DNA from: Haloferax volcanii DS2
GTDB lineage: Archaea; Halobacteriota; Halobacteria; Halobacteriales; Haloferacaceae
Length of the DNA stretch: 32,000 nt
Direction of reading: 5' to 3'
NCBI RefSeq assembly: GCF_000025685.1
Contig: NC_013967.1
Span: 2,100,001 to 2,132,000, forward strand
Part shown: one piece after another, positions 11,513-31,603 of the stretch
Numbering within the stretch: the first letter of the stretch is position 1
Layout of the letters: each line of letters opens with the position of its first letter
The notes under the pieces: generated by a model
What the model was told of the DNA's origin: nothing
Seen by the model: only the letters and a program-made list of their open reading frames with translations
Databases searched by the model: none
Program-made: the position numbers and the translations under genes

Positions 11513-12478
11513 GTTATCTCGATTCGGATAATTTGGAGACGAGAATCACAGTCACTGGACCTTATCGATTTCAGGAGCTCCGTGATGAGATTGAGGACGC
11601 GGGAATTTCCATACATGACGGGAGCAACCCAGACCAGCTATCTAGGGGTGATGTTGTAGAGGTGTCTGGAAAGCTGAAACCGATGTCTCTGTTCAAATTC
11701 GAGATAGCATTCAAAGCATTTCTCGATATAATGGACAATGAAACTCAACAGTACTTGCAGGAAATCGATTATCAGGACCAACAGGTCCAAGAGGAGATAT
11801 CGGAAGAGGATGTTGAGGAATTGAAGAACATGCTCAATCTGATACAGAGGTTTGCGGGAGACAAGATTCCACTACGAGCTGACGTGGATAGCCACCCATT
11901 TGGCATCCCTCTCGACCGAAACCACATGAGAAGTAACCCGGAGAGAGTGTTCTTCGAGGATAGGGAATATACCGTCTTTGGAAGAGTAGAAAACCTCATT
12001 CAGGATGCAGAGCAGTGGGACCCCGCAGCGGTAACGGATATTATCGACACATACGTTCCACAGGAACAAACGGGAGAGGAGATGCGGACCATACTCAAGC
12101 AGGTTTCGAGGGAGTTCAATATGCAATTGAGCGATGAAGATTTCATAATCAAGTCTCCAGGGAGCATTATCCACCCAATCGCAGTTCACTGGTAGCGGTC
12201 ACTCATACAATTCTAAGGAACACACTCGGACGAGCCATTTTAGACGACTTTCTATTCCGGCGGTTCAAGAACGAGAGAAGGGAAGTTACCGATTCTCACT
12301 GTGTGACTCACATCTCGACTAGTAGAGTCGATACCTCGATAGTAGTGACTGGGGCCTATGTGACCTCTCAGAGTGTACTCTATTCGCCTGTTGATTACGA
12401 CTGTCCTCTCTCAGAGGGTAGCAGACGCGATTCTCTGACATTCGTGCACTTCTCTTCGCGAATGTATGGATAGAAAGC

Positions 12479-12702: not shown

Positions 12703-13782
12703 TTAGAAATCGCTCAATGCTCGCTGATAGATTTTATATCGGTCTGCTACGTGAGCAGCACCTTCTGAAACACCTTCTTCACAGGACTCCTGATAGTACC
12801 TAAGCTCTCGCCCAAACTTGTCAATTCCAAATGCGCAAATGAGTGCGACTTCTGCAGTAGAGATTGCAGAGTAAGCTAACAATCGGATTGCCCTGTCGAT
12901 GAACTTGATGTAGCCCGGCCCGTACAGCCGACTGAATATCCCTCCATGTTCGTAGTTGGCCCATTCTCGGAGTAGCTTGAATACGTGGTAGAAAGTAGAG
13001 GTGTCCCGCCCATTATCCCATGTACTGATATTTTTTGCTTTGCTATATACCGCATTCATTTGACGCTCATAGTGATTTGCATATTTTTCCTCACGCTGAC
13101 CACGGATTTCAGGTATCCATTCTTCATTTTCAACGCCAATGAAGTACGGAAATGGTTTCCTGAAGTCGAAGAATTGCCCAGAAGAGGGAGCAAAATTAAA
13201 CGGATACCCATAGAGACCACGGGCTCGTGAGGACATAAACTGATTAGAGTGTTTTCTTAGCGTAGCCTGATGCGAATTAGATAAATCAGAATCATCTTTA
13301 GTACGGATAATTGCTGAGGCAGACTTGTATAGTGCGTAATAGCACATCGTGATTCGCCATTCAGCAGTTTTCATCCTCTCTTCGGGCCCAGCATCAACCG
13401 GGTCACTCAAACAATATTCATCCCTCCAAGCATTAGTCAAATTCCGGAAAGCCTTCTCCGCATAGATTCTATCTGAACCAGACCGATTGCGAAAGAACCC
13501 CAGAAGTTGACCTCGATTTTCCACGGCGAATTCAAGAGTTGCATAAATAATGTGCTCCTTCAACCGTTCAACGTCACTATCGTTACTTGCCTCAGCTAAA
13601 TTCAAACCCCAAACGCTCTGTTCATCTGAATCGATTTCAGAGGATGGCGCAACAGAATTGTCCAGCCCCATATTTTGGTCCCGCCCATACTCATAGGCCC
13701 AATAATACCCGTTTGCTATTGTTTTAAAAAATTGACCTACGGGTATCGCCTGCTCCGCAAATCTCCGAGCAGTATGCGACAT
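12703..13782 (-). CDS. hypothetical protein (359 aa); weak HEPN-like helical hints only
   Basis: Clean low-GC ORF. Helices such as MCYYALYKSASAIIRTK…SHQATLRKH and FKLLREWANYEHGG loosely resemble HEPN helices or R-x(4-6)-H motifs. This is not a confident assignment. Confidence 0.6.
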   Translation of the reverse strand: MSHTARRFAEQAIPVGQFFKTIANGYYWAYEYGRDQNMGLDNSVAPSSEIDSDEQSVWGLNLAEASNDSDVERLKEHIIYATLEFAVENRGQLLGFFRNRSGSDRIYAEKAFRNLTNAWRDEYCLSDPVDAGPEERMKTAEWRITMCYYALYKSASAIIRTKDDSDLSNSHQATLRKHSNQFMSSRARGLYGYPFNFAPSSGQFFDFRKPFPYFIGVENEEWIPEIRGQREEKYANHYERQMNAVYSKAKNISTWDNGRDTSTFYHVFKLLREWANYEHGGIFSRLYGPGYIKFIDRAIRLLAYSAISTAEVALICAFGIDKFGRELRYYQESCEEGVSEGAAHVADRYKIYQRALSDF

Positions 13783-13850: not shown

Positions 13851-14573
13851 CTAGGCCGAAATACTCAGTTCTCGTGCCTCTTCGGGATTTGTCTTCATTC
13901 GTTCAACACGCTCTGCAGATTCGAGATTTTTTGTTAATGTGAGTAGTTCTCGCCCTCGCAACTCGAGCCACGTAGTGTCAAAATCACTCCGCTCTGCCTC
14001 AGTTGCGGGAATCCAATAGCAGTCTCCGATGAATTCCTTGCTTCCCTTGGACGCGAACGCGAATGCTGTCGTCTCTTCCGGTATCAAGGTCAACGCGTCC
14101 TGAACAGCAATCAGATACTTTGTCCCCAATGCGACGAAGACCAAGTCGTAGCCTTTGGCAAGGATTTGCCGGAGGTCCTGAGGGATATTCTTCTCCCGGC
14201 CAACAGCCGCTACTAACTCGTTGTTGGTCATCGTATCTACGTCGAGGTTCATCCGTTCTGCCCGTTGACGAACCTGCTCAATCTCGCTGAATGTACATTC
14301 ATAGGACGGAATCTCTGTTCCAGCAGAGAGGACACCAAACCCGGCAGAGATGATACGCCAATCCACATTAGCGAACTCCGAAAGCTCTTGTACAGCTGAT
14401 TCGATATGCTCGTGCTCGCGTCCCGTGTACATCTCAGCCGCCGAAGCGACTGAATTAGGATGCTCGCTCAGTAACTCTGTCCGCTCCCGCGAGTCTATCT
14501 CTTCGGGACCAATAACAGCATCAAATCGCTTCGTTCCTGAACAAGGTGAGATAATGAGCACATCCAATCCCAT
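13851..14573 (-). CDS. hypothetical protein (240 aa), DUF6884-like N-terminal pattern
   Basis: The pattern LIISPCSGTK … AAEMYTGREH … WRIISAGFGVLSAGTEIPSYECTF matches my recollection of the DUF6884 consensus (CSxxK, Y-x-G, ILSAxxG, P-Y-x-x-T). The family assignment is unverified. Confidence 0.6.
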   Translation of the reverse strand: MGLDVLIISPCSGTKRFDAVIGPEEIDSRERTELLSEHPNSVASAAEMYTGREHEHIESAVQELSEFANVDWRIISAGFGVLSAGTEIPSYECTFSEIEQVRQRAERMNLDVDTMTNNELVAAVGREKNIPQDLRQILAKGYDLVFVALGTKYLIAVQDALTLIPEETTAFAFASKGSKEFIGDCYWIPATEAERSDFDTTWLELRGRELLTLTKNLESAERVERMKTNPEEARELSISA

Positions 14574-14656
14574 TTGTGTATTCTTATTCTGAATGACTAC
14601 TCAGAGAACGAAACTCTTTGTGGACGTGCCTGAGAATCATATGCTAAGCAACAACG

Positions 14657-15367
14657 ATGGCACGACGTGAGGATATTACCCGACTCTATGAACTCCTTGA
14701 CGAGTTAGAGCAGACCGTCGGCGGGAAACAGAAGCTCAAGGACTGTACCGGCTATATGGACTGGCCCGACAGAGGCGTCTACTTCTTCTTTGCGTCAGAC
14801 GAACACCGCGACGCCGGCGACCAGCTTCGGATTACTCGCATCGGGACTCACGCTGTCTCCGAGAGAAGCAGTACCTCGCTCTGGGACCGACTCAGAACAC
14901 ATCGCGGAGCAAAGCGGGGAACCTACGAAGGCGGCGGGAACCACCGAGGCTCTGTCTTCCGAAAACGAGTCGGCGAAGCGTTCGTTGAGCGTGATTCCCT
15001 GAATGATGAGTATCCCCATTGGGGCGAAGGCTCAAGCGCGAAGCGAGAACGACGACTTGATGAACTCGAGATGGAGCGGCGAGTAAGCGACTATCTTCGG
15101 GACCTGCCGTTCCTCTGGCTCAACGTTGACGATGAACCAAGGGCCGAGAGTCAACGGGCCTACATCGAACGAAACACGATTGCGCTCCTCAGTAACTACC
15201 AGCGAGAGGCCGTTGACGCTCGCTCAGATAATTGGCTGGGAAATCATAGTCGGAGCAAGAAAATCCGCGAATCCGGACTGTGGAATGTGAACCACGTCGA
15301 TGAGGATTACGACCCGGAATTTCTCGACCTCCTCCGCGACCAGATAGAAGAAACGTCGCCAGTCTAA
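14657..15367 (+). CDS. GIY-YIG-like nuclease domain protein (236 aa)
   Basis: GVYFFF…LRITRIGTH (GIY…YIG-like), then LWDRLRTHRG (conserved Arg region), GGNHRGSVFRKRVGEAF, and YIERNTIALL (Glu). It is transcribed divergently from 13851..14573. Confidence 0.6.
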   Translation: MARREDITRLYELLDELEQTVGGKQKLKDCTGYMDWPDRGVYFFFASDEHRDAGDQLRITRIGTHAVSERSSTSLWDRLRTHRGAKRGTYEGGGNHRGSVFRKRVGEAFVERDSLNDEYPHWGEGSSAKRERRLDELEMERRVSDYLRDLPFLWLNVDDEPRAESQRAYIERNTIALLSNYQREAVDARSDNWLGNHSRSKKIRESGLWNVNHVDEDYDPEFLDLLRDQIEETSPV

Positions 15368-15429
15368 GAATCGACCGCCATCGTAGCGACAGGACACTAT
15401 TATAATGGTAATGTCTGTACAGCAATAGT

Positions 15430-16818
15430 ATGGCAATCTACGTCGACGACCCTCTCAATTCGAACGACGAAGACTGGGACATCAGCAAGTTCCACAGCGA
15501 TAGCGAATACTTCGTTAAGCGACCACCCTATCAGCGAAAGACCGTCTGGGATACCGGAAAGAAGAAAGAACTAATCGACAGCTTCGTTCGCCAACTCTAC
15601 GTTCCGCCTGTCGTTATCCGGCAAGTCGTCCTCGACGGTAACGACCTCCGTCTCGAAGTCGTCGACGGCCAACAGCGAATTACCGCGATTCAAGAGTTCT
15701 TCGAGGACGAATTCGCACTCCCCGATAGCCCCGAACTCCGTGAACTCAACCCGGAACACGAGATTGCTGGGAAACGATACTCCGAACTTAGCGAGGACGT
15801 CCAGGAGTATATTGACTCTCAGTGTTCGCTCAAAGTCATCAAGCTGCGCGGCATCGACGACCCCGACGACAAGCGCCATCAGGAGTTAGCCACGAAGGTA
15901 TTCTGGCGACTCCAGCAGGGCGAACACCTGACCAACATCGAGAAGAACCACAGTAAGACCTACAGCCCCGTTCGGAACTTCATCGTCCAGACGGCCGACG
16001 ACATCAGCTTCGACCGGGAGAACTACGAAAGCCGTGACGACAACCCCAATCGCCACGAGTTCTTCACGCTTCTCGCTCGGAACAACGACCGACTTCAGCA
16101 ACTCTCACTCCTTGCTCGCTTCATCCTGATTGAGATTGATGAAGGCCCGACGAAGGTCACCGGGAAGGAGGTCACCAAACTATTCGATTGCAAGCGCGAG
16201 GGGTTCACTGTCCACGAGGACTTAGAAGAGTTCAAACAACGCGATGAGATTCAGCGCGTTCAGCGGATGCTCGACCTCCTTACGGAACTGTACCGAGATA
16301 CCGACCTGAAGAACGGGAACGGAGAGATAGAGTTCCTAAACAAGGAGTACTTCATCCTCAGCCTGTATTCGCTCATCCGTGAGTTAGAGTACGGCGATTA
16401 CAACTTCGGGCGGGACAACTACGACGAGGTTCGGGACTTCACCGAGGAGTGGTTCAAGCGGTTCGAAGTTGAGGATACAGACGACAGCGAAATGCTCCAA
16501 TTCAAGGAGGCTCGCCAGCAGAACCGAGGAGCAGTCAACAAGCGACACTACATCCTCGAAAACGCCTTCTGGGAGACAGAGCCCGACATTCAAGAGACGG
16601 ACAGCCAACGGGCATTCTCCCGAGCGCAGCGAATTAAGCTCTTCATCGAGAGTGACCGCATCTGCGAGATGTGCGTAGAGGAAGGGAAAACCGAAGAGGA
16701 GGCAAAAGTGTCTTGGAGTAATTGGGACGCCGACCACATCGAGGAACACTCACAGGGCGGCCAGACTGTTCTCGAAAACGCACGGGTCCTCTGCCCCCAT
16801 CATAATCGGAGCCGATAG
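15430..16818 (+). CDS. DUF262 (ParB-like, DGQQR) plus C-terminal HNH nuclease; GmrSD/BrxU/SspE-like type IV restriction candidate
   Basis: N-terminal YQRKTVWDTGKKKELIDS…VVDGQQRITAIQEFF is the DUF262 signature. C-terminal CEMC…DADHIEEHSQGGQTVLENARVLCPHHN is HNH. Confidence 0.8.
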   Translation: MAIYVDDPLNSNDEDWDISKFHSDSEYFVKRPPYQRKTVWDTGKKKELIDSFVRQLYVPPVVIRQVVLDGNDLRLEVVDGQQRITAIQEFFEDEFALPDSPELRELNPEHEIAGKRYSELSEDVQEYIDSQCSLKVIKLRGIDDPDDKRHQELATKVFWRLQQGEHLTNIEKNHSKTYSPVRNFIVQTADDISFDRENYESRDDNPNRHEFFTLLARNNDRLQQLSLLARFILIEIDEGPTKVTGKEVTKLFDCKREGFTVHEDLEEFKQRDEIQRVQRMLDLLTELYRDTDLKNGNGEIEFLNKEYFILSLYSLIRELEYGDYNFGRDNYDEVRDFTEEWFKRFEVEDTDDSEMLQFKEARQQNRGAVNKRHYILENAFWETEPDIQETDSQRAFSRAQRIKLFIESDRICEMCVEEGKTEEEAKVSWSNWDADHIEEHSQGGQTVLENARVLCPHHNRSR

Positions 16819-16873: not shown

Positions 16874-17077
16874 ATGACTGATGCACCATTAGCGCCCCGT
16901 CGACCGATGGACGACAACAAGGGATTAGGCGAGGGAATGACCAGCGTAGATATCTACTGTCACCGCCAGCACAAAGGCCAATGGCAGCAAGAGGCCGACG
17001 AACAAGGAATCAGCCTGAGTCGCTATCTGGTCGAACTCGTTCAAGAAGCTCGCTGGCAGAGACATAACGACGACTGA
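16874..17077 (+). CDS. ribbon-helix-helix (CopG/Arc-like) small regulator
   Basis: VDIYCHRQHKGQWQQEADEQGISLSRYLVELVQEARW shows a beta-strand plus two helices. It is a paralog of 17186.. and 31833... The exact start is uncertain. Confidence 0.6.
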   Translation: MTDAPLAPRRPMDDNKGLGEGMTSVDIYCHRQHKGQWQQEADEQGISLSRYLVELVQEARWQRHNDD

Positions 17078-17185: not shown

Positions 17186-17695
17186 ATGACAGAGACATCT
17201 GTGGACAGCCCCAGCGACGAACGGGACTTCCAAACGCTCCACAAGAATACGACCAGAGCCGAACTCTTCCCCGCCAAACAGCACAAAGAGGAATGGTGGG
17301 AAGAAGCCGAACACGAAGGGTCCAGCCTCAGCCGGTACCTCTACGACCTGATTCAGGAAGCCCGGATGTATCGGGACAGCGGCGCACCCTTCATCCAAAC
17401 ACAGGACCAGACAGTCAAGCAACTCCAAAACAAAATCGACGACCTCCAAACGCAACTTGAAGAGGCTCGACAAGGCGGCGGTGGTCGAACCCACCTCAGT
17501 ATTGATGACCTCGTCACTCGGGTATTGGACCAGCAGTACCAATCACTAGACGAACTCATAGAGCGCGTTTCTGCTAGTGACGATGTCGCCCAACACCTCC
17601 AACGACAAATCGAGAACCGGCTGTACGCCTTAGCCGAGAACGGACAGGTTGAATTTCAGCGTGGACACGGCTGGCGGCTCAAGGAGGGGAACTAA
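17186..17695 (+). CDS. RHH-domain protein with a coiled coil and a C-terminal wHTH-like region
   Basis: AELFPAKQHKEEWWEEAEHEGSSLSRYLYDLIQEARM (RHH paralog), then the coiled coil VKQLQNKIDDLQTQLEEA. Its stop lies 1 nt before the integrase ATG. Confidence 0.7.
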   Translation: MTETSVDSPSDERDFQTLHKNTTRAELFPAKQHKEEWWEEAEHEGSSLSRYLYDLIQEARMYRDSGAPFIQTQDQTVKQLQNKIDDLQTQLEEARQGGGGRTHLSIDDLVTRVLDQQYQSLDELIERVSASDDVAQHLQRQIENRLYALAENGQVEFQRGHGWRLKEGN

Positions 17696-17696
17696 C

Positions 17697-18632
17697 ATGG
17701 GGGCCGAACCCGGTTCATCGAAAATCTACGACAACAAGCACGACGAAGTCAACTACTTCATCACTCGAAAGCACGCGACCGGCCGGAGCGAAAGAACGCT
17801 CAACTCCTACAGTCGCATCCTCCGTGAGTTCTTCCACGACCAATTCCCAGACCTCTCACCCAGTGAAGTCGAGATTCGACACGTCGAAGACTATCTAATG
17901 GCGCTCACAGACCGGGGCGTCTCCCAGAATTCGAAAAAGAAGTATCTGGAAGTCCTCTCCAGTTTCTACGGCTATACGCTAAAACGGCCGCAGTTCGAGG
18001 GAATTACCAGCAACCCCGCTGCGGTCGTAATGGAGGAGATTCCCCGGGTTCGTCCTGACCGTCCAGACTGTGCGACATGGGAGAACGCCTGTAAACTCAT
18101 CAATGCGATTCCCGACCCGAGAGACAAGACCGTCACCATCATCCTCGCCAAAACCGGCGCTCGACTGCTGGAAGTCCTCTCCATCGAAGAGGACGACGTC
18201 GACCTCGAGAAGGGATTCATTCGACTCCGAGAACGCAAGGGAGGTAAACAGACTGTCGTCCCAATCGATGACGAGACCATCTACGCCATCAAACGCTACC
18301 AGTTCGTCAACGCCGATTTGGATTCGCCATATCTCTTCACAAGCAACAAAGGAGGACGGCTCTCGAAAGAGCGGATTCGACGGGAAGTGAAAGCCGCCGC
18401 CGACCGCGCCGGCGTCGCCCCCAAAGAAGAACGACGGTTCGAGAAGAAATTCACACCTCACACCTTCCGCACCGTGTTCACTACGCTAATGCGGAAACAA
18501 GGAATGAAGCCGTACATTCTGAAATACATCCGTGGAGACGCTAAGACCGAGACGATGGATATCTACACTCGGGTAGACCGTGACGAAGCGAAAGAAGAGT
18601 ACCTGAACTGCATCAAGGAAATTGGACTCTAA
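17697..18632 (+). CDS. tyrosine recombinase / phage-type integrase (XerC/D-like)
   Basis: Start at MGAEPGSS (ATG at 17697, preceded by AAGGAGGGG). Box I TGARLLEVLSIEEDDVDL; box II HTFRTVF…IRGD…MDIYTRV (R, H-x-x-R and Y catalytic residues). Confidence 0.9.
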   Translation: MGAEPGSSKIYDNKHDEVNYFITRKHATGRSERTLNSYSRILREFFHDQFPDLSPSEVEIRHVEDYLMALTDRGVSQNSKKKYLEVLSSFYGYTLKRPQFEGITSNPAAVVMEEIPRVRPDRPDCATWENACKLINAIPDPRDKTVTIILAKTGARLLEVLSIEEDDVDLEKGFIRLRERKGGKQTVVPIDDETIYAIKRYQFVNADLDSPYLFTSNKGGRLSKERIRREVKAAADRAGVAPKEERRFEKKFTPHTFRTVFTTLMRKQGMKPYILKYIRGDAKTETMDIYTRVDRDEAKEEYLNCIKEIGL

Positions 18633-26071: not shown

Positions 26072-26614
26072 TTAGAGAAATTCAGAGACCGTCTCTGTCA
26101 AGCCCGCAAAAATCTCCTCGGCTGATTCGATACTCCGACAGCCCGTGATAACAACCTTACCTGTAGCGAAGAGCAGTACTACACCTTCTGCGCCCTCGGG
26201 GCGATAAATTAGACCGGGGAACTGTTCCGGTTCGTACTCGGTCTTCTCGAGACCCAGTCCGATGGCGAGCGCATTCAGATTGAGGTTCTGGTCTAGTTCT
26301 CCAGTACAGACGTAATTCTGGACGGCGAACCACTCGTCCTCGGGGTTCTCAATAACGTCCATTTCGGCGAACAAATTCAGAAATCGCTCTCGGAGCGAGT
26401 AGGATTCGTCCTCGGAGTCTGCGCCGGTGATGATGAATTTACCCGTGCGATAGACCGTTATCAGCGGCGCATCCTCCTCGAATCGAAGGTACATCCCTGG
26501 GTACTTGTCCGGGTCGTAGCGAGCGACCGGCTCACCGATGTCGTCAGCGAGGCGTTCTAAATCGAGTTCGACATTCAGAGCACCTGATGCGACGACATTT
26601 ACAATCTCTACCAT
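26072..26614 (-). CDS. tbp: TATA-box binding protein (TBP) paralog
   Basis: Start at MVEIVNVVASG (ATG at 26614). Two TBP repeats: IVNVVASGALNVELDLERLA… and VQNYVCTGELDQNLNLNALA…, each followed by the …GKFIITGA / GKVVITGC motif. Confidence 0.9.
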   Translation of the reverse strand: MVEIVNVVASGALNVELDLERLADDIGEPVARYDPDKYPGMYLRFEEDAPLITVYRTGKFIITGADSEDESYSLRERFLNLFAEMDVIENPEDEWFAVQNYVCTGELDQNLNLNALAIGLGLEKTEYEPEQFPGLIYRPEGAEGVVLLFATGKVVITGCRSIESAEEIFAGLTETVSEFL

Positions 26615-26757
26615 CCCGCCCTCCGACTCACAGTTAAATCTCGTTTCAATTCTGCTCAGCCCTCGTCTAAACACTTGCTGGTTTCCGCCCTCTGTGAGGT
26701 ATTGTTGAAAATGACTGTCGGAAGAGCACTTATACCCCGAGTGAAATATAGTGAGTA

Positions 26758-28980
26758 ATGGCTGACAAAGGAACCGACCCCGAAGACGAAGCCCGAGAGG
26801 TCATCGATACCCAGCTAAAAGAGGCAGGCTGGAAAGACCTCGAAGAAGAGGGAGGCGATACGGGTTTCGAACGGGAGTATTCCACTTCTTCTGGTCCCGT
26901 TGATTACGCTCTTCTGGTCTCAGGAAAGCCCATCGCGGTCGTAGAAGCGAAAGAAGCCCAGAAAGACGCCTATGCCGCTCTAACCCAATCCAAACGATAC
27001 GCACAGGATATCGGTACGGGTGAGAACTACGCTGGCCGGTACGGCGTCCCCTTCGTGTTCACCGCGAACTCAGACGAAGTGTGGTTTCAGGACCTTCGAG
27101 AGGAGGCCCCGCGTGAACGGAAACTCCGTAGTTTCCACCGACCTGATGGACTCGAACAGTTCCTCAATACCGACTACAAGGCTGCGAAGGAGTGGCTAGA
27201 GGATACCCCTATTCGAGAGTCCGACTCGAACCTCTGGGATAACCAGTTTGAGGCAATCCAGAGTATCGAAGAGTCCCTTCAGGAAAACAAGCGGCGGATG
27301 CTCGTTCAGATGGCGACTGGAACCGGGAAGACCCGGATGGCCTGCGCTCAAACCTACCGCCTCCTGAAATCCGGCTACGTCAATAGCGTTCTCTTCCTCG
27401 TTGACCGCAACAGCCTCGGGAATCAGGCTGAGAGCGCATTCAAAAACTACGACGTCGGCCCGGCGATGAAGCTAAGCGACATCTACATTATCGAGCAGGT
27501 CGAGGACGGCGTCTATCCCGAGAACGCGGATATCGTCATCGCCACCCTTCAGGGGATGTACAGTCTGCTCGAAAATCACGACGAACTCGACATCCCGCAG
27601 GACGCGTTCGACTTCATCATCTCCGACGAGTCCCACCGCTCTATCTACGGGGACTGGCGCGTCGTTCTGAATCACTTCGATGCCCTCCAACTCGGTCTGA
27701 CTGCGACCCCGGCGACTCACACGCTCAGCTACTTCAACGAGAATTGGGTCTACCAATACGGCTACTGGCAGGCGGTCGATGACGGTCACGTCGTCCCCTA
27801 CGAGACGTACCGGATTCAGACGGGCATCACGATGGACGGCCTCTACTACGAAGATGAGGAGTACGAACCCGGCGACCTCGAAAACAAAATCACCGTTCCC
27901 TCTACGAACCGCCTCATAGCAGAAGAGTTCCGGAAGCAGTCGGGCGAGGACGAAAAGACGCTCGTGTTCGCTAAGAACGACCGTCACGCAACCGAGTTAG
28001 AGAAGATATTCAGGGAGGTCTACTCGGACAAAGACGACCGCTACGTCAAGAAAATCACCTACACGACCGACGACCCCGACGGCTGGATTAAACGATTCAG
28101 GAATCAGAAGTACCCGAAAATCGCGGTGACGGTTGATATGGTCAGTACGGGTGTTGACGTCAAACCTATCGAGAATATCATCTTCATCCGGCCGACTCGT
28201 TCCGCCGTCCTCTACAACCAGATGATTGGCCGGGGGACTCGAACCTGCGACGAGATTGGCAAAGAGAAGTTCACCATCTACGACTGCATCGGCATCGTCG
28301 ACTACTTCAGCGAGACGCCGCCGTTCAACACGTACCGCCCGGATGGAACCGTCGACGAAGAGAAGTCCGGACAGAAGGAGCGAGAGGACGACGAGGACGA
28401 CGAAATCATCGTCGCCGACGACGTTCAGGACCACCTCGAATTCTCGGGGTATATGTTCGAGACGAAGGACGGCCAAGAGCTACGGCCGGACGACTACGTC
28501 ACTCACTTCGAGCGATACGTGAGACAGAACCAGTCCGAGATTGAAGCAATAAAGATAATAATGGAGTCCCCGGAAGCCCTCAAGCGTAAGCACCTCCGGG
28601 AACTCAATCGGAAACTTCAGGACGAGCCGGAGAAGTTCTCCGAAGAGAAGCTGCAAAAGGCCTACGGGCAGGAGATGACCGACATCATCGGCTTCATCAA
28701 ACACGCCCTCGGTGAAGACGAGTTCCCCACGACGGAAGACCGGGTCGAACGGGCGTTTAGTGCGTGGATGCAGGACAAAGATTTCACCGAGCAAGAACGC
28801 GAGTGGCTGAACCTCCTCAAACGCCACTTCGTGCAGGAGAAAGTCATCAAGAAGGAGGATTTCAACTACGTGCCGTTCTCCCGGCATGGCGGTTGGAATT
28901 CCGCTGCGGAGGCATTCGGAGGAGAAGAGGAGCTGAAAGACGTGCTGCAAGAGCTTAACGAAGACGTGATATTAGCATGA
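26758..28980 (+). CDS. hsdR: type I restriction enzyme R subunit (HsdR)
   Basis: N-terminal PD-(D/E)xK-like VDYAL…VVEAKE. SF2 helicase motifs QMATGTGKT, SDESHR, LGLTATP and QMIGRGTR. The C-terminal domain is EcoEI-R-type. A 4-nt ATGA overlap joins it to hsdM. Confidence 0.9.
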   Translation: MADKGTDPEDEAREVIDTQLKEAGWKDLEEEGGDTGFEREYSTSSGPVDYALLVSGKPIAVVEAKEAQKDAYAALTQSKRYAQDIGTGENYAGRYGVPFVFTANSDEVWFQDLREEAPRERKLRSFHRPDGLEQFLNTDYKAAKEWLEDTPIRESDSNLWDNQFEAIQSIEESLQENKRRMLVQMATGTGKTRMACAQTYRLLKSGYVNSVLFLVDRNSLGNQAESAFKNYDVGPAMKLSDIYIIEQVEDGVYPENADIVIATLQGMYSLLENHDELDIPQDAFDFIISDESHRSIYGDWRVVLNHFDALQLGLTATPATHTLSYFNENWVYQYGYWQAVDDGHVVPYETYRIQTGITMDGLYYEDEEYEPGDLENKITVPSTNRLIAEEFRKQSGEDEKTLVFAKNDRHATELEKIFREVYSDKDDRYVKKITYTTDDPDGWIKRFRNQKYPKIAVTVDMVSTGVDVKPIENIIFIRPTRSAVLYNQMIGRGTRTCDEIGKEKFTIYDCIGIVDYFSETPPFNTYRPDGTVDEEKSGQKEREDDEDDEIIVADDVQDHLEFSGYMFETKDGQELRPDDYVTHFERYVRQNQSEIEAIKIIMESPEALKRKHLRELNRKLQDEPEKFSEEKLQKAYGQEMTDIIGFIKHALGEDEFPTTEDRVERAFSAWMQDKDFTEQEREWLNLLKRHFVQEKVIKKEDFNYVPFSRHGGWNSAAEAFGGEEELKDVLQELNEDVILA

Positions 28981-30371
28981 GTCGGAACAACGGAAAACTC
29001 GACGTCGAACAGAAGATTTGGGATATCTGTGGTATTCTCCGTGAGGACGGGATGCACATCGGGACTTATGTCGAACAGGTCACGGTGCTACTATTCCTAA
29101 AGATGATGGACGAGCGGGAGCAATTCGGTAGCGAGTCCATTGAGATTCCGGAAGATTGCCAATGGAGTGTGCTAAAAGAAAAGGATGGTGAGGAGCTCCT
29201 TGAGCATTATAACCGCGTTGTCCTTCCGACGCTCGGAGACCAAGACGGAATTGTTGGAGACATTTTCGCGCGAGTTAATAGTCAGTTCCGCACACCAGTC
29301 AACCTCCGTGAAGCTATTCGTGAAATTGATGAAGTAGAGTGGTCGGCGATTGAGGTTGATGTTAAGGGGACTGCATATGAAGCGCTTCTTCAGCGATATG
29401 CTGAAGAAGCAAAAGGGGCGGGCCAATATTTCACACCTCGACCAGCAATTAAGGCAATTGTCAAGGCAGTAGACCCCGACCATGACGATGATATACATGA
29501 CCCAGCCGCTGGGACTGGAGGGTTCCTAATCCACGCTTTCGAACATATTCTTGAAAAGACAAATGAAGGGTTGGACCTGAGTCGGGATGAACGGAGAGAG
29601 CTAATGACAGAAAATCTCTCTGGAATGGAATTAGTGCCTGAAACCCGCCGACTAGGGCTAATGAACTTAGCACTTCACGATTTACAGCCTCAGAATTTCG
29701 AGGTGGGAGATTCATTATCGCTGGGTCCACATACGGACGAGTCGTATGATGTGATATTAACTAACCCGCCATACGGTGGAAATCAAAAGAAAAAGCGAGC
29801 TCGGGATGATTTTATGGTCGATACCAGAAGTCCCGAACTCAACTTTGTTCAACACAACATGAGCCTCCTCAAACAAGGGGGTGAATGTGGTATGGTCGTT
29901 CCAGATGGGACCTTGTTCCAGTCCGGCGCTGCCCAAAGAATCCGAGAGAACCTATTTGAGGATTTTAACGTCCATACTGTTCTCGTACTACCGATTGGTG
30001 CATTCCAACCCTACACCAACGTTGCAACTAACGTTATATTCTTTGAAAAGGGCGATTCAACCGAGAAAGTGTGGTTCTATGACCTCCGAACAGAGATGGA
30101 AAAAATCAAGAAAAGTAACCCTCTTACGGAAGAGCACTTTGAGGATTTCCTTGAGAATTTTGACTCTCGTGAAGAAAGCGAACATTATTTCTCTGTTTCA
30201 ATAGAAGAAATTGAGGAGAACGAGCACACGCTCAGTTACAAGCAGTATAAGGAATTTGATGATGGTGATGAAGTTGCGCCTCCAGAGGAGCTTCTCACTG
30301 AACTGCAATCTCTACAAGATACTGTTCGAGAGAATACAGAAGCGATTATGGATGAGCTGGAGGACGAATAA
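28977..30371 (+). CDS. hsdM: type I R-M N6-adenine DNA methyltransferase subunit (HsdM)
   Basis: N-terminal HsdM-type helical domain. AdoMet motif DPAAGTGGFL and catalytic NPPYGG. FTPR precedes motif I. Confidence 0.9.
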   Translation: MSRNNGKLDVEQKIWDICGILREDGMHIGTYVEQVTVLLFLKMMDEREQFGSESIEIPEDCQWSVLKEKDGEELLEHYNRVVLPTLGDQDGIVGDIFARVNSQFRTPVNLREAIREIDEVEWSAIEVDVKGTAYEALLQRYAEEAKGAGQYFTPRPAIKAIVKAVDPDHDDDIHDPAAGTGGFLIHAFEHILEKTNEGLDLSRDERRELMTENLSGMELVPETRRLGLMNLALHDLQPQNFEVGDSLSLGPHTDESYDVILTNPPYGGNQKKKRARDDFMVDTRSPELNFVQHNMSLLKQGGECGMVVPDGTLFQSGAAQRIRENLFEDFNVHTVLVLPIGAFQPYTNVATNVIFFEKGDSTEKVWFYDLRTEMEKIKKSNPLTEEHFEDFLENFDSREESEHYFSVSIEEIEENEHTLSYKQYKEFDDGDEVAPPEELLTELQSLQDTVRENTEAIMDELEDE

Positions 30372-31603
30372 TGGATAGAGAGGATTTGCCTAAAGGATGG
30401 AGACAATACGAATTAGGTGAGATATGCGAAATCATCATGGGTAACTCACCCCCTGGGGAGAGTTATAACGATGAGGGAGAGGGGGTACGTTTCTTGCAGG
30501 GCCAAAATGAATTCGGGGAGAATACCCCTGATAGCGATAGATTCACTACCGAACCTTCGAGGATGAGTAAGAATGGGGATATATTGGTAGCTATCAGAGC
30601 TACACCCTTAGGGATAGTAAACCAAGCAGATGATGAATATTGTGTAGGGCGTGGTGTAGCTGCATTAAGACCGAAGAAGAAGAAGCTTGATGGAAGATAT
30701 CTCTACCACTACATGAAATACTGCAAAGAGAGCGAGTACTGGAGAAAGGTGAGTACTGGCAGTACCTATCCATCAATAACTAAGACAAACCTGCAGAATT
30801 TGTCTGTCCCGCTTCCACCCTTGTCCGAACAGCAGAAAATTGCCGACAAGCTGAACTCCGTAATTAGGGGAGTGGACGAGACACGCGAAGTGAGTTCTGA
30901 CGCTAAAGTAATTGAAGAGAATCTACTTCGGTCCTGCATTTCGGGGTTGATGCCAGAAAAGGAGGGTTCAACGTGTGAAACAGTCAAACTCGATACTGTC
31001 TGCGAAGTAATCCTTGGTAATTCACCCCCAGGAGAGAGTTACAACGAGGAGGGTGAGGGAATGCGTTTCTTGCAGGGGCAAAAAGAATTTGGAGAAAAGA
31101 CCCCTGTCAGCGATAGATACACTACTGACCCTTCGAAAGTAGGTAAGGAAGGGGACATTCTGATAGCTATCAGAGCAACGCCCTTGGGAATCATAAACCG
31201 TTCAGACGATACGTATTGTCTTGGGAGAGGTGTAGCAGGGCTAAGACCTGAAAAGAATCTCGATGGTGGATACCTCTATTACTATATGAAGATACAACAC
31301 GGATATTGGGAGAAAATCAGCAAAGGGAGCACATACCCCTCCATAACTAAGACAAATCTTCAAAATCTACCCATTCCACTTCCAAAGATTTCTAAACAGC
31401 AGGAAATAGCTGAACGTCTTGAATACATTGAAGCCAGAATAGACGATATTCATGAAGCATCGGAGCGAATGTCCGACATAATCGACGTACTCCCTGAGTC
31501 GGTTCTTTCAAAAGCATTTCAGGGAGAACTCATAGACGACGAATCCATAGAAGAGCGGGTCGTAGCGGTGCAGAGTGGGTTGGAGGAGTTTGAGCCCAAT
31601 TAA
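30371..31603 (+). CDS. hsdS: type I R-M specificity subunit (HsdS) with two near-identical TRDs
   Basis: TAATG overlap with hsdM. Two-TRD architecture with conserved spacers (LSEQQKIADKL / ISKQQEIAERL). TRD1 (aa 13-161) and TRD2 (aa 205-350) are about 70% identical by eye. Confidence 0.9.
   Translation: MDREDLPKGWRQYELGEICEIIMGNSPPGESYNDEGEGVRFLQGQNEFGENTPDSDRFTTEPSRMSKNGDILVAIRATPLGIVNQADDEYCVGRGVAALRPKKKKLDGRYLYHYMKYCKESEYWRKVSTGSTYPSITKTNLQNLSVPLPPLSEQQKIADKLNSVIRGVDETREVSSDAKVIEENLLRSCISGLMPEKEGSTCETVKLDTVCEVILGNSPPGESYNEEGEGMRFLQGQKEFGEKTPVSDRYTTDPSKVGKEGDILIAIRATPLGIINRSDDTYCLGRGVAGLRPEKNLDGGYLYYYMKIQHGYWEKISKGSTYPSITKTNLQNLPIPLPKISKQQEIAERLEYIEARIDDIHEASERMSDIIDVLPESVLSKAFQGELIDDESIEERVVAVQSGLEEFEPN

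Follow-up and report, generated by a model that had tools for sequence, protein, structure and literature searches.

Two predicted nuclease genes lie 62 nucleotides (nt) apart in a 32,000-nt stretch of the Haloferax volcanii DS2 genome (contig NC_013967.1, positions 2,100,001 to 2,132,000, hereafter the window), raising the question of whether they constitute a single restriction system or are two separate genes that adjoin. The first (14657-15367, + strand) encodes a 236-amino-acid (aa) protein of the GIY_YIG_3 family (PF26468), a putative GIY-YIG-type nuclease that corresponds to the PADLOC family PDC-M57B. The second (15430-16818, + strand) encodes a 462-aa protein, here called DUF262-HNH, in which a ParB-like DUF262 domain with the DGQQR motif is followed by a helical middle region and a C-terminal HNH domain (PF01844). 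The initial annotation of the window had joined the two into a functional two-nuclease module. Our analysis favors instead, with a probability of roughly 0.7, the reading that two independent nuclease genes stand side by side, GIY_YIG_3 being partnered with the product of a divergent DUF6884 gene (13851-14573, - strand) that the initial annotation had missed, and DUF262-HNH being self-contained.

Both open reading frames (ORFs) were found where they had been placed, co-directional on the + strand, and all of the motifs that had been quoted for them were present and invariant, or nearly so, in the homologues; we conclude that both are genuine genes and not chance ORFs. The GIY_YIG_3 protein has 6031 database homologues, many of them 70-92% identical across haloarchaeal genera, and it matched the PADLOC PDC-M57B model (PDLC04714) with an expectation value (E) of 1.6e-77, residues 1-233 aligning with model positions 1-234 of 238. 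The curated family PF26468 was found as precomputed annotation on the window protein and on 120 of the 120 homologues listed, the local Pfam copy being without the PF26468 model; the membership of this family in the GIY-YIG clan is our assumption from the family name. The classical GIY-YIG model, PF01541, matched neither the window protein nor 51 relatives, even at E≤5. The protein carries the motifs GVYFFF (residues 40-45) and RIGTH (residues 61-65), and residues Y42, R61, G63, R78, H82, H96, E171 and N180 are conserved in the family; across 51 diverse and 11 close homologues, Y42, G63, R78, H82, E171 and N180 either do not vary or are over 90% conserved. R61 replaces the second Tyr, that of 'YIG', and we take this residue to be comparable to Lys73 of Hpy188I. 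The identical 236-aa protein was indexed in 317 assembly-collection blocks (the HsdS protein encoded further along the window in 418), so that the organism or element it comes from must have been sequenced many times; the protein is present in NCBI assembly GCA_018420055.1 on contig JAERQU010000016.1.

The AlphaFold2 (AF2) model of the GIY_YIG_3 protein, with a predicted local distance difference test (pLDDT) score of 96.3, contains strands at residues 40-50 and 57-64, a helix at 75-83, helices at 100-112 and 130-148, a strand at 151-156 and a helix at 166-178. Read against the known residue pattern of I-TevI and UvrC, this order of elements and the conserved residues would fit a GIY-YIG core with a large insertion. 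As in the UvrC N-terminal domain, I-TevI, Eco29kI and Hpy188I, GVY42 is placed on strand 1, R61-I-G63 on strand 2 and R78xxxH82 on the next helix, and E171 is placed on the helix after strand 3; the predicted element order is compatible with that of canonical GIY-YIG domains. Unlike in these enzymes, helix 1 and strand 3 of the window protein are separated by an insertion of about 65 residues that adds two helices, and the protein has a C-terminal extension with a WLG...SGLWN motif. The description of this protein as GIY-YIG-like can be accepted at the level of the curated family and the motif pattern, the fold and profile comparisons considered below being not significant.

The family that recurs beside GIY_YIG_3 is DUF6884. 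We analyzed 80 species-level GIY_YIG_3 genome loci, found with an alignment of 11 closer sequences, and, for fusions, the best 150 of the family's 50%-identity representatives, of which the 80 representatives of at least 285 aa formed the subset scanned with Pfam. A DUF6884 gene lay within 500 nt of GIY_YIG_3 in 43 of the 80 loci, which span Halobacteria, Thermoplasmata, Chloroflexota, Acidobacteriota and Proteobacteria; it was upstream and co-directional in 18 loci, downstream and co-directional in 17, divergent in six and convergent in two. Clustering of the GIY_YIG_3 neighbors revealed DUF6884 as the sole recurrent family, the context being variable and holding no conserved housekeeping genes. 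In addition, a profile derived from the loci identified DUF6884 as part of the same protein in 51 of the 150 representatives (35 with an N-terminal and 16 with a C-terminal DUF6884), and Pfam assigned DUF6884 to 45 of the 80 long representatives. With about one third of the representatives fused and more than half of the loci showing adjacency, in archaea and in bacteria, this is a Rosetta-stone case, indicating that GIY_YIG_3 works with DUF6884, and the frequent fusions speak for a physical complex. The gene at 13851-14573 is likely the true partner of GIY_YIG_3 in the window. Other fusions among the 80 long representatives involved DUF7662 (7/80) and the N and C domains of a FEN-like 5'-3' exonuclease (3/80); one representative was fused to a Mur-ligase and one to a prenyltransferase, both of which may be gene-calling artifacts.

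The DUF6884 protein of the window, 240 aa in length, is of a long, DpdC-like form. It matched the Pfam families DUF6884 (PF21818) at 3.3e-05, which is below the cut-off, and YaaA at 7.5e-4, and the PADLOC models DpdC at 6.8e-16 (residues 4-168) and PDC-M57A (PDLC04712) at 0.003; its homologues carry precomputed PF21818. Of 102 GIY-associated DUF6884 domains, about 95% retain the motifs C11xxxK15 and S76-A77-x-x-G80, which match those that Pfam describes for the DUF6884 family. This family is related to the oxidative-stress DNA-binding protein YaaA, a base-flipping DNA-binding fold has been proposed for it, and one of its members, YfjM, came up among proteins interacting with abasic and RNA-base lesions (PMC11701544). 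By analogy with these relatives, the window protein is a putative YaaA/DpdC-like DNA base-flipping sensor or enzyme. The likeness to DpdC has limits, in that the match covers about half of the model (170 of 312 positions), no dpdA or dpdB genes are found as neighbors, and the partner in the window is a nuclease rather than a transglycosylase. The same long, divergent form of DUF6884 was also found in Salarchaeum japonicum, Haloarcula pellucida, Halobellus limi and Natronorubrum daqingense, and in the bacterial loci the long form (neighbor cluster 1) is the usual partner of GIY_YIG_3. The 83-nt intergenic region between the two divergent genes (14574-14656), which presumably holds both promoters, is conserved within a block common to loci L004, L009 and L011.

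The DUF6884 and GIY_YIG_3 pairing corresponds to PDC-M57, a PADLOC two-gene candidate (cassette CAS_00183, FAM_03160>>FAM_00294) that was nominated by 'guilt-by-embedding' in BREX, DISARM or type I restriction-modification (R-M) loci and is among 145 untested PDC candidates (Payne et al. 2024, bioRxiv 10.1101/2024.01.29.577857). The 236-aa protein of the window is a full-length PDC-M57B match, and the partner slot is filled by DUF6884, as it is by PDC-M57A. The short DUF6884 neighbors found at other loci matched PDC-M57A at 1e-30 to 1e-45, and the fusion proteins matched the A and B models together; in contrast, the window DUF6884 protein is long and scored better on DpdC than on PDC-M57A, and the two window genes are adjacent but divergent, whereas the catalogued cassette is co-directional, A followed by B. 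Judged from these matches, the window pair is a predicted variant of PDC-M57, of the same superfamily and with another DUF6884 subfamily. The initial annotation had stated that a GIY-YIG protein paired with DUF262-HNH is not a described system and had recommended a PADLOC search. The statement is true, but only because that pairing is not conserved, the real pair having been catalogued; the search did yield matches for both proteins, PDC-M57B for the first and NsnA for the second, but the catalogued partner of the first is DUF6884 and not DUF262-HNH. Literature searches on PDC-M57, on PF26468/GIY_YIG_3 and on YaaA/DpdC with GIY-YIG found no functional study and, for PDC-M57, no anti-phage assay.

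Analysis of the 462-aa protein bore out its earlier description as a DUF262 domain joined to a classical HNH finger that takes the C-terminal place of DUF1524. Pfam matches to GmrSD_N (8.9e-18) and HNH (7.2e-06) were both past their cut-offs, and PF07510 (DUF1524) was not matched in the Pfam scan. The motif D79-G-Q-Q-R83 is invariant in 54 homologues, and the HNH finger is formed by C412xxC415...D435-H436...N450...C455-x-x-H458-N459. In PADLOC, the protein matched NsnA at 2.3e-18 over residues 31-335, comprising DUF262 and the helical middle, and PD-T4-2_A at 2.3e-16. Foldseek searches with the AF2 model (pLDDT 89) yielded ParB/Noc N-domains (9.4e-4), BrxU (7p9k_A, E 2.6e-3, probability 0.90, with a template modeling (TM) score of only 0.2), SspE (E 0.06-0.1) and sulfiredoxin (Srx), with the Gme HNH nickase and McrA matching the C-terminus; no significant sequence match was found among PDB chains. 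More than 1000 homologues in archaea and bacteria have the same two-domain architecture, under the NCBI labels 'DUF262 domain-containing protein' and 'HNH endonuclease family protein'. This GmrSD-like architecture is thus widespread and stands alone; a second nuclease is not needed.

The layout of the GmrSD family, known from GmrSD, BrxU and SspE (PMC4619093, PMC12065111), joins a sensor NTPase to a helical region for DNA binding and to a nuclease of the His-Me finger type. Similar to Eco94GmrSD, BrxU and SspE, the window protein combines a DGQQR-type DUF262 domain, a helical middle and a C-terminal His-Me finger in one polypeptide; it differs from them in that its nuclease is a PF01844 zinc-finger HNH (CxxC...DH...N...CxHHN) rather than DUF1524, and in lacking a linkage to BREX or Ssp genes at this locus. 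Since PF01844 HNH and DUF1524 domains are both His-Me finger nucleases (PMC4619093), DUF262-HNH and GmrSD can share a working principle, although strict family membership does not follow. The role resembling type IV restriction that had been suggested for DUF262-HNH is reasonable by this analogy, and we regard the protein as a candidate GmrSD-like type IV restriction enzyme.

The proposal of a two-nuclease module had been tied beforehand to conserved linkage of the two genes, and such linkage was not observed. A DUF262-HNH neighbor was present in only one of the 80 species-level GIY_YIG_3 loci, that of Salarchaeum japonicum (L009), which is the same element as the window (93.6% DNA identity over 6.1 kb). 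A profile of 54 DUF262-HNH homologues revealed no further copies near GIY_YIG_3 in the 80 loci, a search that misses very divergent DUF262 subfamilies such as the Pfam-annotated GmrSD in L006, and neither a DUF262 nor an HNH domain was found among the 80 long GIY_YIG_3 representatives, as compared to DUF6884 in 45. The gene downstream of GIY_YIG_3 varies; for example, Halobellus limi has DUF192 there and Natronorubrum daqingense has DUF8172. Ten metagenome contigs with about 90-97% DNA identity to the window all had GIY_YIG_3 upstream with the same spacer. In contrast, DUF262-HNH relatives at 77-86% DNA identity lacked GIY_YIG_3, lay in about five contexts and had no other common neighbor; these relatives included those of Halarchaeum rubridurum (94% aa identity) and Halobaculum lipolyticum (82% aa identity) and those of four metagenome contigs, in two contexts. 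As judged from these comparisons, the adjacency is limited to one shallow lineage comprising the window, Salarchaeum japonicum and the ten metagenome contigs. The GIY alleles beside DUF262-HNH likewise form one shallow clade, with the exception of L090, in which the same DUF262-HNH is found with another GIY allele (77% aa identity) and a canonical, co-directional short DUF6884.

Comparison of the loci placed a recombination or insertion breakpoint in the 3' end of the GIY_YIG_3 gene (15300-15330), forming the left border of the DUF262-HNH segment. A block containing the genes for p359 (a 359-aa protein described below), DUF6884 and GIY_YIG_3 (L004, L006 and L011) is common to Halobellus limi, Natronorubrum daqingense and Haloarcula pellucida, and its homology stops at 15327-15328; between L090 and the window, DNA identity is 61-77% over the body of the GIY gene and rises near 15300 to 93-100%. 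Several unrelated loci had their breakpoints within the last 40-70 nt of the GIY_YIG_3 gene, which suggests that this 3' end is a hotspot of insertion or recombination and is possibly the attachment site of an integrative element carrying the downstream p169 and integrase genes. The 62-nt spacer (15368-15429, + strand) contains a TATA-like sequence, TTATAA, at 15400-15405, about 28 nt before the ATG of DUF262-HNH. In haloarchaea, the promoter of a leaderless transcript would be expected at this distance, suggesting that DUF262-HNH may have its own promoter and a leaderless transcript. Given the breakpoint in the GIY 3' end and the TATA-like box of DUF262-HNH, the adjacency looks like the result of a cassette insertion, and L090, with its other allele and its jump in identity near 15300, fits an insertion at this site.

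We propose that the two nucleases would act as follows. The DUF6884 protein, through its YaaA/DpdC-like CxxxK...SAxxG pocket, would bind DNA and flip out a damaged or modified base, and would then direct, recruit or license the GIY_YIG_3 nuclease to cut that DNA. In DUF262-HNH, the ParB-like NTPase/sensor domain and the helical middle would recognize modified foreign DNA and activate the protein's own HNH domain. A cassette with DUF262-HNH, usually accompanied by the downstream genes for p67, p169 and an integrase, would have entered the 3' end of a GIY_YIG_3 gene by insertion or recombination. The effects of the DUF6884/GIY_YIG_3 pair and of DUF262-HNH on incoming DNA may add up, with no sign that either depends on the other. 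Of this picture, the comparisons show the domain identities, the linkage and fusions of DUF6884 and GIY_YIG_3, the absence of conserved linkage between GIY_YIG_3 and DUF262-HNH, and where the breakpoint lies; the biochemical activities, the role in defense and the promoter are inferred.

Several observations weigh against this reading. Foldseek searches of PDB and BFVD with the GIY_YIG_3 model returned nothing at E≤0.001, so that either the core is masked by large insertions or, as judged from the model, the family may be structurally unusual. Comparison by hhalign of the GIY_YIG_3 profile with a profile of four sequences (three UvrC sequences and I-TevI, all PDB-verified) and with a 120-sequence profile of the UvrC N-domain yielded E values of 0.19 and 0.15 with probabilities below 1%, which are not significant; both best local alignments were in the expected register, YIG being matched by RVG, the catalytic Arg by R78 and the metal-binding Glu by E171. 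Searching PDB sequences with a profile of the family found only an irrelevant weak match, ORF134. The partner assignment is affected by the weak match of the window DUF6884 protein to PDC-M57A and its score under the Pfam cut-off, and by the 33 of 80 GIY_YIG_3 loci, mostly haloarchaeal, that have no DUF6884 within 6 kb, in which a more sensitive profile made from the fusion proteins recovered no further partner; the GIY_YIG_3 nuclease can therefore occur alone. A search for att-type direct repeats of the GIY 3' end, covering the window and the 10 kb that follow, was negative. Finally, the GIY_YIG_3/DUF262-HNH block with its constant 62-nt spacer is kept across about 12 loci whose outer flanks differ, and in L095 the homology spans these two genes only; some lineage-specific cooperation between the two may exist and remains conceivable in view of the constant spacer.

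The preserved spacing, the common strand and the joining of the same DUF262-HNH to a different GIY allele in L090 are also what would be expected if GIY_YIG_3 and DUF262-HNH were one modification-dependent module with two nucleases, in which the DUF262 sensor controls both HNH and GIY-YIG. We consider such a module very unlikely, given that the linkage recurs in a single species-level locus, that closely related DUF262-HNH genes and the architecture at large occur without GIY_YIG_3, that the domain fused to GIY_YIG_3 is DUF6884 and never DUF262 or HNH among the long representatives, and that the 3' breakpoint and the TATA-like box point to a separately transcribed inserted cassette. A different arrangement, in which GIY_YIG_3, with or without DUF6884, is a selfish homing-type nuclease gene whose own cutting creates the 3' hotspot at which cargo such as DUF262-HNH accumulates, would account for the clustering of breakpoints at the 3' end, for the integrase module found downstream in three genera and for the very high identity between genera despite varying contexts; it is textbook knowledge that many GIY-YIG proteins are homing endonucleases. 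This arrangement appears barely credible, as there is no association with an intron, intein or defined target gene, GIY_YIG_3 is rare in viral contigs (14 loci in IMG/VR versus at least 578 in genomes), and homing endonucleases are not typically fused so often to a conserved domain that, like DUF6884, is putatively an enzyme or a sensor.

The chief uncertainty for the DUF6884/GIY_YIG_3 pair is whether it serves defense or repair. If it were a DNA-repair module that recognizes and incises lesions rather than acting against viruses, with DUF262-HNH as an unrelated neighbor, this would agree with the kinship of DUF6884 to YaaA and the interaction of YfjM with lesions, with the three representatives fused to exonuclease domains, with the size and conservation of the family, and with UvrC, whose 3' incision uses GIY-YIG chemistry (textbook knowledge). 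A repair function nevertheless seems unlikely to us: the gene has a variable context without conserved housekeeping neighbors, it is present in two copies in some genomes (Halorussus, Haloferax gibbonsii and Natrarchaeobius oligotrophus), it lies in low-GC, integrase-bearing or defense-rich regions, and PDC-M57 itself was nominated from its embedding in defense loci. A more far-reaching version of the defense function is doubtful but conceivable, namely that DUF6884 and GIY_YIG_3 form a widespread immune system of a new mechanistic type, in which a base-flipper senses a hypermodified viral base (e.g. the 7-deazaguanine derivatives of haloviruses) and licenses the GIY-YIG cut, stacked here with DUF262-HNH. 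If true, two sensors of modified DNA with different nuclease chemistries would cover different viral modifications.

Under the favored reading of two independent genes, the juxtaposition of GIY_YIG_3 and DUF262-HNH is a chance and ordinary meeting of two catalogued gene types in a defense island, and no new two-nuclease restriction system is to be recorded from it. What the locus offers is the evidence for joint action of GIY_YIG_3 and DUF6884, a pair known only as the candidate PDC-M57; this provides a concrete functional hypothesis for the two families, and the well-conserved haloarchaeal version is suited to Haloferax or Halobacterium genetics.

The surroundings of these genes are those of a genomic island. 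The GC content is 63-70% over bases 1 to about 10,500 of the window, where permease genes are found; from a level of about 67% it then falls, at about 10.5 kb, to the 44-57% that holds for the rest of the window. The low-GC part holds the genes for a DUF6414 protein, the 359-aa protein, DUF6884, GIY_YIG_3, DUF262-HNH, p67, p169 and a tyrosine integrase and, further downstream, those for a plasmid-type helix-turn-helix protein and a TATA-binding-protein paralogue (26072-26674, - strand) that adjoins a complete type I R-M operon. This operon (26758-31603, + strand) comprises hsdR (26758-28980), hsdM (28977-30371) and hsdS (30371-31603), with the Pfam domains HSDR_N/ResIII/EcoEI_R_C, N6_Mtase/HsdM_N and Methylase_S. 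The low GC content, the integrase and the defense genes together place the locus in an integrated mobile, defense-rich haloarchaeal region. Defense genes also surround DUF6884 and GIY_YIG_3 in equivalent loci, including Mrr_cat (L089, 1895-2905, - strand), Schlafen AlbA_2 (L093, 2363-3706, + strand), a canonical GmrSD with DUF262 and DUF1524 (L006, 1924-3963, + strand) and a PAPS-reductase/DndD-like pair (L004, 1-2560, - strand); in L096 and L097, an additional gene sits between the divergent DUF6884 and GIY_YIG_3 genes. An Rfam scan of the window gave no match. At the left edge of the low-GC island, the DUF6414 ORF (11533-12195, + strand; Pfam 3.8e-29) starts with TTG and matches profile positions 74-282 of 283 only, which may mean that its real start lies further upstream or that the gene is truncated.

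The gene for p359 (12703-13782, - strand) is co-oriented with the DUF6884 gene and lies 68 nt downstream of it. Its product had no match in Pfam, PADLOC, NCBIfam, PHROGs or PDB sequences. Only the window organism, Halobellus limi and Natronorubrum daqingense have the gene alongside DUF6884 and GIY_YIG_3, its slot being filled elsewhere by other genes, such as that for the Mrr_cat protein in L089, and p359 is probably a variable accessory gene of the island. We rejected p359 as a third component of the system, as it was absent from 80 of the 80 species-level loci. Near its C-terminus, p359 has an R-x6-H stretch (REWANYEH) that, by its residues, might be HEPN-like.

Downstream of DUF262-HNH, the integrative element comprises p67, p169 and the integrase. 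The 67-aa protein p67 (16874-17077, + strand) is a paralogue of the N-terminus of p169, the profiles of p67 and p169 matching each other's proteins; it gave NikA/MobA-like (ribbon-helix-helix-like) matches below threshold only and is possibly a small DNA-binding or excisionase-like protein of the element. The 169-aa coiled-coil protein p169 (17186-17695, + strand) is always encoded 5' of an integrase and is part of the integrative element; p169 and the integrase were found downstream of GIY_YIG_3 in L009 and L046, and in L007 (the Natronorubrum daqingense locus, also listed as L006) p169 precedes a fragment of an integrase gene. The tyrosine recombinase itself (17697-18632, + strand; Pfam Phage_integrase 2.6e-24, Phage_int_SAM_4 1.3e-09) is annotated as a 311-aa gene in L001 and L002. 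About 40 nt 5' of both the p67 and the p169 genes, similar AT-rich motifs (TATCATTAA) are present. A second pair, encoding a 166-aa protein and a 310-aa integrase, follows hsdS about 1.5-2.9 kb past the window end (L107, 11463-12895), and its integrase gene is paralogous to that of the window (65.6% nt identity), which suggests tandem integrative modules with defense cargo ahead of each. Beyond this second pair lie genes for an Eco57I-type methyltransferase, a 1397-aa AAA protein and a TraG/TrwB-like protein.

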